64,000 nt of DNA from a virus (lineage: Duplodnaviria; Heunggongvirae; Uroviricota; Caudoviricetes): the IMG/VR virus record IMGVR_UViG_3300037455_000816; one strand, 5' to 3'. Made by a program: the position numbers. The stretch's first letter is position 1. The number at the start of each line of letters is the position of its first letter. Below are positions 9,001 to 12,000 of the stretch, one piece after another.

Positions 9001-12000
9001 CTCCAGGGTGAAAGTGCCGCGCTCGATGTCGCGCAGCTTCTTCTCCCACTTACCTGTCAGCTCAGGACTCTTCAGCATCCTGACATGGATGGTCTCAAGC
9101 AGGGCGCGGCCTGTCTCGGTGGAAATGAGCTTCTTCTTCTCACGCTTAATATACGTGCGTTTCAGAAGGGTCTCGATGATGCTGGCACGGCTCGACGGGC
9201 GGCCAATGCCATTCTCCTTCATCGCCTCACGAAGCGTCTCGTCATCCACGAACTTGCCGGCGGTTTCCATTGCCTGAAGCAGGGAAGCCTCGGTATATCT
9301 GGCGGGCGGGGTGGTCATCTTCTCTTGAATGGATGGCGTATGGCTTCCGCTCTCATTGAGGGTGAAAGCGGGAAGGATGGCGTTCTCGCCCGGCTCCTTC
9401 TGCTGGTTCTCATCCTCCTCATCCTTCTGCACCTTGGCATACACCACCTTCCAGCCCTCGTTGATGACCGTGCGGCCAGTGGCCTTGAAGTCCACGCCGC
9501 CGGAATGTCCCATCACCGTGGTCTGGTTATAGTCAAAATTGGGATAGAAAATGCTGATGAAACGGCGGCAGATCAGGTCATAGACCTTGCGCTCGTAGTC
9601 ATTGAGGGAACTCAGGTTCCCCGTTTCACCCGTAGGGATGATGGCATGGTGGTCGGTAACCTTGGAGTTGTCGAACACCCGCTTGCTCTTGTTGAGCGTC
9701 TGCCCGGCCAAACGGCCTGTCAGATCCTCATAGCCTCGGAGGCTCTTCAGGATGCCGGGGCATTTGGGGTACATGTCATCCGTGAGAAACTTCGTATCGA
9801 CACGGGGATAGGTGGTGAGCTTCTTCTCATAGAGGCTCTGGATATTCTTCAGGGTGCTGTCAGCACTCATGCCGAACTTGCGGTTACAGTCCACCTGTAG
9901 GCTCGTCAGGTCATAGAGCTGGGGCGGTGCCTCAGTACCGCGCTTCTCCTTGATGTCACGGATGAAGAACTTACTACGGCTGGCAGCCTCCAAGTAAGAC
10001 TGGGCTTCATTCCGTGAGTTGAAGCGGCCCTTAGTACAGGTGAACACGGCATTACGGTACGTGGTCATCAGAATCCAGTAGGGTTCGGGCTTGAAATGCT
10101 CGATCTGTAAGTCGCGCTCCACAATCATCGCAAGGGTAGGAGTCTGCACACGTCCGATGGAGAGGGCCTGCTTGTAGCCGCCGAACTTCAGCGTATAGAG
10201 GCGGGTGGCGTTCATGCCAAGGAGCCAGTCGCCTTCGGCCCTGGCCTGTCCTGCCTTATACAGCGAGTCGTAGTTGCTCTGCGGCTTCAGGTTGCGGAAG
10301 CCCTCACGGATGGATTCTTCGGTGAGCGAGGATATCCAGAGACGCTTGACAGGGCATCTGACACCGGCAAGCTCCATCACCCAACGCTGGATAAGCTCGC
10401 CTTCCTGGCCTGCATCACCACAGTTAATGATGGTGTCGGCCTTCTTGTATAGCTCCTTAATGACCTTGAACTGCTTCCTGACACCCTTGTCATCGATCAG
10501 CTCAACTTCGTAACGGGGAGGGATCATGGGCAGCACGTCCATGCTCCACTTCTTCCATGTGTCACGGTAGCCGTCGGGGGATTTGAGCTGGCACAGGTGA
10601 CCGAAAGTCCAGGTCACCTGATAACCGTTACCCTCAAAATAACCGTCCTTCTTGCTCCGTGCGCCAAGGATCTTGGCAATCTCGCCAGCGACGCTCGGCT
10701 TTTCTGCAATACAAACTATCATGTTCAAAAATTTTTGATTGATAAACCATTTGCAAAGGAAAGAAATATATTTCTGCGGGCAAAATCTGTCACTTAAAAT
10801 CTCTTGATTTAACAAATTCAAGACCCGAAGGGCCGATTTTAAGGGGTTTTGACCCTGTTTTCCGTTGTTCATGGCCGGTTGTCGTGAGTGACGGTGGCAT
10901 CACGCCCCGCTCAATCAAACTTTGATATCATTTCAACACACTTTTTTCACCAAAATATGCAGTATTTTGCCCTAAAATGCAACATTTAGGGGTGTTAGGG
11001 TCTTGAATTTGTTAAATCAAGACTTTTATTTTGAATATTTTGGTTGCCAAAAAGAAGAAGCATATCTTTGCAGCACCGTTTCGGATTCGCCAGCGCGACC
11101 CTCCGGGGCGGCAGACAAATCGTATAATAATTAATAAGGTATAAGCAATGAAAGCTGTATTCAACATCAAATTAACCGTAGAAGGCCGCGATGTCGTCAC
11201 CAAGGTGGGTGTCGCCGAGGGCCTGGATGATATGGAAATTACTTTGTTGCAGAATATCCTTCGTTCTATTGCTGACACCCAGAAGAGGGTGAAGCAGCAG
11301 ATTGACCGCTTCTACGGCGCTCCCGAAGGCACGGTAGATAACTCTGAGACGGCTGATTTAGAGCCTAAAGAAGAAGCTGAAGCAGGAGCAGTAGCACCCA
11401 AGACCGAAGAACAGGAGTAATCCATCCAACCATCCGAAGAATGAGAAAAGCTAATTTTCGAATTATATCACTAACACTTACGTCTTTGTTTGTGTGTGCC
11501 AGCGCCAGCGCACAGGAGGCTGAAAAGCTTTCTGTGTCGCTGGTTCCCGACGCGCAGTACGCCGTGGCTACCAACAAGTTCAAGGATAACTGGGAGGTTT
11601 CCTTCGGACTGGGCGCAACCACGTTCTACGGCAACCAGGAGGCGAACATGGATCTGTCACGAGGACTGTTCCAAGGATTCCGCACCTCCGTGGGCGTAAG
11701 TATGTCAGTGGCCAAGTGGTTCTCACCCGACATTGCCATGCGTCTGAAGCTCAACGGCTTCTCAGGCAAAAGCATCCAGTCGGCAGAATCCGATTCAAAC
11801 AGCGTCAAGTATGCCTCGCTGCAGGCCGACGCTCTGTTTAATATACATAATATGGTAAAGGGTTACGACCAGGCCCGCTTCTGGAACTTCATTCCATACG
11901 CAGGCGTAGGCTTTGCTCGTAACTTCACCCATTGCCGTAACACGCTCACCTTTCATGTCGGACTCCTGAACACCTTCCGCATCACGGAACGCCTGAAAGG

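Follow-up and report, generated by a model that had tools for sequence, protein, structure and literature searches.

A fixed-position palindromic promoter site, a putative operator, in a family of Bacteroidales mobile elements

The 25-mer and its promoters in the window

The DNA analysed here (the window) is the 64,000-nt stretch of the IMG/VR record IMGVR_UViG_3300037455_000816, which is filed under Caudoviricetes; it is part of a Bacteroidales conjugative element. Five operons of the window start behind an identical 25-mer, GGGTCTTGAATTTGTTAAATCAAGA, which an earlier note made from the sequence alone had taken for the operator of an element-wide regulon. An exact search recovered all five copies at the positions given in that note, each oriented toward its own downstream gene, and no further match with up to three mismatches exists in the window. 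In 100 dinucleotide-preserving shuffles of the window the 25-mer was never matched (five observed against zero expected). It contains the inverted repeat TCTTGA-N10-TCAAGA, with pairing at 8 of 11 symmetric positions, and consists of GGG followed by a 22-nt core, TCTTGAATTTGTTAAATCAAGA. The five sites, their core promoters and the genes that they face are as follows.

10802-10826 (-): operator copy 1 (GGG plus the 22-nt core), an exact match in the aligned register, facing the topoisomerase III operon
10754-10784 (-): core promoter of copy 1, with the -33 TTTG at 10781-10784 and the -7 box TTCCTTTG at 10754-10761; spacing as in the family consensus
4350-10722 (-): operon of copy 1, comprising topoisomerase III (8671-10722), a 150-aa open reading frame (ORF), a c4-like small protein (7770-8012), a Kinase-PolyVal protein and an Mfa-like/LRR surface protein (4350-6602); assigned by Pfam and, for c4, by a hidden Markov model (HMM)
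10998-11022 (+): operator copy 2, an exact match by alignment, facing the OmpA/PorKLMN-like/fimbrillin operon
11039-11070 (+): core promoter of copy 2, TTTG-N20-TATCTTTG (pattern scan)
11148-22207 (+): operon of copy 2 (11 kb), comprising a 90-aa ORF, OmpA, a PorK/GldK-like protein, GldL, GldM, GldN, DUF3575, DUF5119 and an Mfa-like fimbrillin (Pfam)
33401-33425 (-): operator copy 3, facing the secreted Endonuclease_NS gene (32350-33210)
33353-33384 (-): core promoter of copy 3, TTTG-N20-TAACTTTG (pattern scan)
45827-45851 (+): operator copy 4, facing an operon (45919-53925) that leads from a lipoprotein gene through a Mob_Pre relaxase (49019-50518) to a Band_7 protein
45868-45899 (+): core promoter of copy 4, TTTG-N20-TACATTTG (pattern scan)
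54184-54208 (+): operator copy 5, facing the operon that runs from an OmpA paralogue to a coupling protein (54287 to at least 63585; type IV coupling protein at 59857-62124)
54225-54256 (+): core promoter of copy 5, with a weak -33 element, TTGC, at 54225-54228 and the -7 box TACCTTTG at 54249-54256; spacing as in the family consensus

Copies 1 and 2 form a divergent pair that separates topoisomerase III from the large operon. The genes behind copy 1 probably make up one operon, judging from their tightly packed ORFs on the same strand. The true start of topoisomerase III is at 10722 (MIVCIAEKPS), not at the start of the longer ORF. For copies 1 to 5 the first ATG follows the motif after 79 (topoisomerase III), 125, 190, 79 and 87 nt.

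When the five copies are aligned in motif orientation, they share one common register relative to a Bacteroides-type -7 box. The hexamer CTTTGC, part of this box, is invariant in all five and begins 43 nt past the motif end, and a -33-type TTTG lies about 16 nt past it. The complete promoter TTTG-N20-TAnnTTTG that had been noticed at copies 2 and 4 is present at both, and a third one was found at copy 3; a strict scan of the window for TTTG-N18-22-TAnnTTTG returned only five promoters, three of which belong to motif copies. The -7 boxes of copies 1 and 5 are near-consensus. These are promoters of the Bacteroidetes sigma-A type, with TTTG and TAnnTTTG elements 19-21 nt apart just upstream of a gene. 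Copies 2 and 4 do share a further identical stretch beyond the motif, but its length is 20 nt and not 21 as noted earlier, because the first base is C in one and G in the other. Degenerate members of the motif family were not found at other promoters of the window.

Spread of the core and its lineage-specific variants

The exact 22-nt core occurs in at least 120 metagenomic loci, and also in metagenome-assembled genomes (MAGs) of Prevotellaceae and Muribaculaceae, the latter with four sites inside 8 kb. A degenerate pattern, TCTTGAWTTNNNNAAWTCAAGA, gave mostly chance matches against genome contigs, the only real loci being those numbered L020, L027, L052 and L054 in our collection. Neither the 25-mer nor the 22-mer was found in IMG/VR viral contigs, a blastn search of the promoter against PLSDB plasmids gave chance matches only, with the 22-mer core absent, and a literature search for the motif sequence found no paper.

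Sites from the window, the MAGs and the metagenomes (at least 120 loci) were pooled into a set of 166 sites in 149 unique contexts. GGG directly precedes the core in about 80% of them, and TTTTG follows at +7 to +11 after the core. The -33 element TTTG(G) stands at +17 to +21 (T/T at +17/18 in 87-93%) and the -7 element TAnnTTTG at +41 to +48 (TA at +41/42 in 79%, TTTG at +45 to +48 in 91-99%), and the bases between motif, -33 and -7, like the other flanks, are unconserved. The -7 box is in exact register at 147 of the 163 exact sites with room downstream for scoring; at the remaining sites it is shifted by 1-2 nt, and a few are truncated by the contig end or carry a weak box or none. Only four sites have a second promoter box, at the corresponding distance on the opposite side. 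Variants of the core are scarce in motif-bearing loci: 163 sites are exact, while one mismatch is found in 4, two in 6 and three in 5. An ATG-initiated ORF lies downstream of 142 of the 166 sites (median distance 78 nt). Clustering divides these ORFs into 42 unrelated groups, among them fimbrillin-like proteins, relaxases, SSB, DUF4134 (Tra-like), NikA-like proteins, topoisomerase III and nuclease.

All occurrences seen lie amid mobile-element genes and none amid chromosomal genes. The 25-mer heads the main operons of the present element and of a family of Bacteroidales mobile elements from gut and rumen that is large and undescribed. Recurrence of one site at a constant promoter position, before unrelated genes and between diverged flanks, is the pattern of a transcription-factor operator regulon. 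It is not that of a ubiquitous REP-like repeat unlinked to genes, since nearly all of the 166 copies lie in promoters and in one orientation. The element-wide regulon suggested by the earlier note is borne out by the same site before five operon starts of the window, and in fact the regulon is family-wide.

Clustering of ORFs showed that the most frequent small protein in motif-bearing loci belongs to a family of 85-100 aa, here called c1, whose conserved motif is EAARILG(I/V)S..(Y/H)(L/M)R.IKD.FP(H/Y)(V/I)K.G...QGRILF. Its score on the helix-turn-helix (HTH) family HTH_17 is weak and below the Pfam cut-off. No gene stands first behind the motif more often than c1 (27 sites). With 25 loci it is as frequent as single-copy genes, integrase and relaxases being present in 21 loci each. 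In related elements, it often stands directly before a tyrosine integrase (Phage_integrase), an arrangement not seen in the window. Among 39 distinct c1 genes, 37 have a promoter that carries a motif-family site or lies off the contig end; the two exceptions are a second paralogue and a gene in a phage-like context. A profile search of the PDB matched c1 to TraN/AM32 at E=4e-4, covering only the C-terminal domain of TraN. An AlphaFold2 model (mean predicted confidence, pLDDT, 82) consists of an N-terminal helix (8-27) and a single winged HTH (36-82), and its Foldseek neighbours are RdfS, BldC, Pukovnik Xis, MerR N-terminal domains and TraN.

A profile search with c1, independent of the motif, found 192 homologues, and the genomic contexts of ten diverse ones were inspected. 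Most of these contexts are small integrated mobilisable elements, whose usual gene set is integrase, c1, DUF5906/DUF3987 primase and Toprim protein, joined in several by a Mob_Pre relaxase; only c1, integrase and primase are common to all of them. In most contexts the c1 promoter contains a variant of the 22-mer in the same register (TAnnTTTG at +41 to +48, or +39 to +46 in L259). Each lineage variant is repeated at two or three promoters per element, typically with two copies back to back, in divergent orientation, at the mob operon:

L243: TCTTGTTATAGTTAAAACGAGA, 2 copies, 22/22 identical, with unrelated flanks
L245-L247: TCTTAAATATGTTAAATCGAGA, 2 copies, plus TCTTAAACACGTTAAATCGGGA
L248: TCGATAACATGTTAAATAAAGA, 1 copy, plus one copy with 3 mismatches
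L250: TCGTAAATGTGTTAAATCAAGA, 1 copy, plus a 3-mismatch copy without a -7 box
L257: TCGTAAAATTGTTAATATACGA, 3 copies with single-base differences
L261: TCGTAAAAACGTTAATATAAGA, 3 copies with 2-3 mismatches

The GTTAA centre is constant in all lineages and the arms vary by lineage. Several arm changes are compensatory across the dyad, from T-A to G-C at positions 3/20, from G-C to A-T at 5/18 and from A-T to T-A at 6/17. An operator that is uniform within an element and different between elements, with the dyad kept, predicts a dimeric DNA-binding protein encoded by the element and argues against a host factor. The dimeric regulator proposed in the earlier note accords with this, as the dyad and its compensatory changes would fit a dimeric protein.

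As an observation apart, the two back-to-back operators in L245-L247, L257 and L261 lie between the relaxase operon and its neighbour, where oriT is expected. This arrangement resembles the mob/tra intergenic region of CTnDOT.

The putative binding factor and the sense of control

The end of the core lies 16 nt before the -33 TTTG and 40 nt before the -7 TAnnTTTG. Assuming that transcription starts a few bases past the -7 box, the core would span roughly -75 to -54, with its centre near -64. Measured centre to centre, the core lies 29 bp upstream of the -33 element, and a T-rich stretch lies between operator and -33. There is about an even chance that the 25-mer is the operator of a sequence-specific dimeric protein of the element family, with c1 as the best candidate, built into housekeeping-type Bacteroidetes promoters at a fixed position. 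The operator would couple topoisomerase III (Exc-like), the OmpA/PorKLMN-like/fimbrillin genes, the nuclease, the relaxase unit and the coupling-protein unit in one regulon. Its factor would be encoded by the element family, c1 being a candidate as an excisionase-like winged HTH of the MerR/Xis type that lies beside a tyrosine integrase and behind its own operator. Two such domains may sit on the arms in adjacent major grooves with their wings at the A/T-rich GTTAA centre, as in the TraN-DNA complex, in which recognition helices occupy adjacent major grooves and both wings enter the central minor groove (PMC6158623). If c1 bound the 22-mer as a dimer, it would reproduce the TraN arrangement with two chains, and the A/T-rich gap between operator and -33 could hold the C-terminal domain of the RNA polymerase alpha subunit (alpha-CTD). 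Given positive control, c1 under its own operator would form a feed-forward switch for excision and transfer.

That c1 itself binds the site falls a little short of an even chance, and another protein of the element is a rather unlikely alternative. Several observations weigh against the favoured reading as a whole or against c1. The window has neither c1 (HMM search of six-frame ORFs) nor an integrase (Pfam on all sizeable ORFs). The recognition helices of c1 do not track the operator arms: the dissimilar helices SVSHMYKIRD, SQSYLRAIKD and SEGTMRRNKD all occur with the identical canonical 22-mer, and near-identical helices accompany different arms. c1 may read only the constant part of the site, or may merely be excisionase cargo of the regulon. 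Furthermore, the 22/22 invariance across elements whose proteins are 30-80% identical exceeds what an operator typically needs, and the near-consensus promoters are as compatible with repression as with activation. Tra genes of the DUF4134 type are likewise absent from the window, and the lack of c1, integrase and Tra genes implies that the element continues beyond it. The c1-integrase module of this element may lie outside the 64 kb, or the factor may act in trans. Look-ups with the proteins at the window ends returned only short Logan contigs, without c1 or integrase. A tblastn search of plasmids with c1 gave nothing.

A slight leaning toward positive control comes from the location of the site and from the CTnDOT precedents Xis2c/Xis2d and RteC. 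The opposite sign is a tentative alternative, on balance unlikely: the 25-mer would be the operator of a global repressor that silences strong transfer and surface promoters in the resident state and permits a burst upon entry into a new host or upon induction. The -33 and -7 elements are near-consensus, so that the promoters should be strong unaided; TraN, the nearest solved relative of c1, represses at Ptra and at its own promoter; and identical palindromic operators across a conjugative replicon are generally known as the IncP pattern (KorA/KorB). However, the operator is clear of the -33 and -7 elements, at a position like that of Bacteroides activator sites (RteC 50-70 nt upstream, Xis2d upstream of the tra promoter). 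Permanent negative autoregulation of an excisionase-like protein would imply a constant low level of excision factor, and no ParB/KorB-like protein was found by Pfam among the window ORFs. A different regulator was suggested by the earlier note, which named the protein encoded at 30076-31011(+) as one candidate. It has 311 aa, with an N-terminal HTH_17 and an RNA_pol_A_CTD domain, both confirmed by Pfam. Over its last ~85 aa it is 70-80% identical to the alpha-CTD of true Bacteroidales RpoA, as though an alpha-CTD had been captured and joined to a DNA-binding domain, and it could serve as a DNA-tethered alpha-CTD or as a decoy. With its HTH on the operator and its alpha-CTD on the A/T stretch contacting sigma, it would suit a site located where a class I activator would touch alpha-CTD. 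Yet tblastn found no homologue in ~800 kb of other motif-bearing loci, a database of 5.8 billion proteins has no more than about seven clusters with this architecture while the motif is very widespread, the HTH is outside the c1 subfamily, and the small elements with variant operators have no such fusion. Lacking homologues in motif-bearing loci and being of rare architecture, this protein cannot be the general factor, and that it is the regulator of the site is highly unlikely.

A host-encoded Bacteroidales transcription factor, whose optimal site the elements adopted to follow host physiology, would explain why no element gene besides c1, integrase and primase is common to all motif-bearing elements, why the window has five sites yet no c1, and why the GTTAA centre and the following T-tract are constant in all lineages. 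It is nevertheless improbable, because the arm sequence is lineage-specific and identical among the two or three promoters of an element (22/22 in L243, between unrelated flanks), because MAGs of both Prevotellaceae and Muribaculaceae, two different families, contain the canonical site, because all occurrences seen lie amid mobile-element genes, and because neither the spacing of Crp/Fnr boxes nor the E. coli IHF consensus is matched. Very improbable, again, is a site that serves primarily for recombination (like dif, lox or hix), at which the tyrosine integrase and c1 would swap promoter-plus-operon cassettes between elements. Inverted arms of 8-11 nt do flank an asymmetric TTGTTA centre, the c1-integrase module is often directly behind a site, flanks are reassorted at the core, and the 22/22 invariance would be explained. 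In nearly every site, however, the -7 box keeps a rigid spacing of 41 nt, which needs coupling to RNA polymerase and is not explained by recombination, ordinary homologous recombination at the sole shared 22-33 bp gives the same junctions, and tyrosine-recombinase sites keep their arms and vary their centre, the reverse of what is seen here. The reassortment itself is plain. The 131 sites with full flanks comprise 89 left and 76 right flank clusters in 99 combinations, and in at least nine comparisons a similarity of 83-98% runs up to the core on one side with none on the other; the operator is a frequent mosaic junction between modules. A dual-purpose site, serving transcription control and also cassette exchange between co-resident elements as a crossover point, via c1 and the tyrosine integrase or via short-homology recombination, is distinctly improbable. 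Finally, the palindrome and T-run might be an intrinsic terminator or insulator of the upstream operon, or a selfish REP/MITE-like repeat. An RNA hairpin of -8.7 kcal/mol (z = -3.8) followed by a U-rich run would suit a terminator, but the stem is A/U-rich, the divergent pairs (window, L245, L257, L261) have no upstream transcript to end, and terminators are not sequence-invariant across unrelated operons; as to a repeat, nearly all copies are at promoters and none are clustered or within genes. Both are barely credible. An operator read by a dimeric protein of the element family remains the favoured reading.

Several candidates were rejected as the site or its reader. A Crp/Fnr site needs TGTGA-N6-TCACA or TTGAT-N4-ATCAA, and the motif has TTGA-N10-TCAA; the E. 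coli consensus for IHF is not matched; RNA-guided targeting finds no stand-alone 22-mer copies away from promoters; and the pooled consensus shows no complementarity between the flanks, which a hairpin promoter of single-stranded DNA carrying the core at the apex would need. As for proteins, c8 is a lipoprotein, c4 is a shared family that is not basic and has no Pfam match, and c28 (ribbon-helix-helix), c17 (HTH_17), c23 (NikA-like) and c35 (LexA/UmuD-like) occur in 5-7 loci each and not in the window. The protein at 48284-48691(+) was dropped as the general factor, being shared with two integrative and mobilisable elements (IMEs) only.

This last protein, of 135 aa, lies just upstream of the relaxase, as it also does in the small elements L245 and L248, and matches a Crp-like winged HTH weakly (E=0.016). 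It probably serves as an accessory protein of the relaxosome and is possibly a DNA binder within the window. Among the mosaic loci, similarity ends within a few bases of the core in L201/L202, L127/L200, L191/L052, L232/L196, L217/L166 and others.

Other features of the element and relation to known systems

Under the promoter of copy 2, a PorK/GldK-, GldL-, GldM- and GldN-like set (a type IX secretion or gliding core) is combined with OmpA, DUF3575, DUF5119 and fimbrillin. Blocks homologous to 11148-22207 occur in other motif-bearing loci such as L193, and a literature search pairing GldM with conjugative, Bacteroidales and plasmid found nothing. In the operon of copy 1, the 80-aa c4 gene (7770-8012(-)) lies in another frame beneath an over-long ORF call (6703-8136); the family, without a Pfam match, is usually represented by two tandem paralogues (73 aa) in related elements.

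A non-coding unit of about 210-330 nt is present in four copies on the plus strand (22378-22650, 35662-35900, 38903-39145 and 63717-64000), three of which are just upstream of plus-strand gene arrays without a 25-mer promoter, the fourth reaching the window end. The arrays contain 'leading region' genes (SSB, LPD28, DUF2851 and RadC-type). The consensus of the unit folds into a long hairpin with compensatory changes at 19 of 52 pairs (DNA fold z = -3.6 and -1.5; no Rfam match), and it could be a structured leader, a non-coding RNA or a single-strand (Frpo-like) promoter. A direct repeat of ~600 nt (33510-34115 against 37960-38554, 81-93% identity) is probably non-coding; the ORFs on it (33433, 33830 and 38275) and an adjoining ORF (34358) give odd, low-complexity translations without Pfam matches. 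At 23935-23972(+), three tandem units of ~10 nt (AGAATAAAGA-like) lie between two small ORFs. No tRNA or Rfam match at gathering score was found in the whole window, and megablast with 24 kb of it gave no nucleotide matches to PLSDB plasmids or INPHARED phages.

Among known systems the nearest is the CTnDOT type of control by excision proteins, while in structure the likely binder comes closest to TraN; the present family is at most a putative member of either. In CTnDOT, the tra and mob operons are activated by Xis2c and Xis2d, whose binding takes place upstream of the tra promoter, and RteC binds 50-70 nt upstream of its target promoter and activates the excision operon (PMC3809561). The likeness lies in the same phylum and -33/-7 promoter type, a small HTH excisionase-type protein encoded beside the integrase (here c1, in related elements and not in the window), and a topoisomerase III-type (Exc-like) gene in the regulon. 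It extends to binding sites, here putative, upstream of transfer and mobilisation promoters (before relaxase, DUF4134 (Tra-like) and coupling-protein operons), and to divergent intergenic regions between mob and other operons that hold such sites. Unlike CTnDOT, the present family has one near-invariant operator of 22-25 nt at a fixed distance before many promoters in at least 120 metagenomic loci, the regulon takes in the OmpA/PorKLMN-like, fimbrillin and nuclease operons, and no tetracycline/RteA-RteB cascade is seen. The comparison of c1 with Xis2c/Xis2d is based on gene and site position.

TraN recognises a specific ~18-bp site at Ptra and another at the promoter of its own gene; the sequence that it binds, ATGTCAGGTTAAACATAT, has a GTTAAA centre in common with the 22-mer (PMC6158623). 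The match of the c1 HTH region, a remote one, is to chains of AM32 and of TraN of pIP501 (Inc18), conjugation regulators of the pIP501/pAMbeta1 type. TraN has two tandem HTH domains per chain (an internal dimer), whereas c1 is predicted by its model to have one plus an N-terminal helix, and TraN is a Gram-positive repressor with two functional sites as opposed to the element-wide set described here.

Many operator copies at operon starts of transfer elements are also known for KorA/KorB (IncP-1), AcaCD (IncA/C) and SetCD (SXT/R391), and their boxes are shared by related and mobilisable elements. Pfam scans, which covered essentially all ORFs of the window (the element continues beyond it), yielded neither a ParB/KorB-like (ParBc) nor an FlhDC-like protein. 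KorB sites lie at a variable distance from promoters, in contrast to the rigid spacing here, and these networks differ in sequence and phylum. In the class I CRP promoter lac P1, the site is centred at -61.5. The 22-bp dyad, with its centre 29 bp upstream of that of the -35 equivalent and an A/T-rich gap for alpha-CTD, is similarly placed, the 29 bp being equal to the distance between the CRP site and the -35 hexamer at lac, but its half-site spacing is not that of Crp/Fnr and no Crp-family protein is implicated.

The 22-mer with its -7 box at a fixed distance is a sequence tag for operon starts in essentially uncharacterised conjugative and mobilisable elements of Bacteroidales. It allows regulons, transfer genes and cargo, including the PorKLMN-like/fimbrillin surface machine, to be annotated in metagenomes, and c1 and the 22-mer are a predicted regulator-operator pair that can be tested. 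Lineage-specific operator variants could explain cross-talk or insulation among co-resident integrative and conjugative elements (ICEs) and IMEs. If the site did serve a dual purpose, the ICEs and IMEs of rumen and gut Bacteroidales would form an integron-style cassette pool joined by one 22-bp site, and both the 22/22 invariance and the reassorted flanks would be explained. The control of transfer in Bacteroidales is known mainly from CTnDOT, and the 25-mer regulon would be a second and much more widespread logic.

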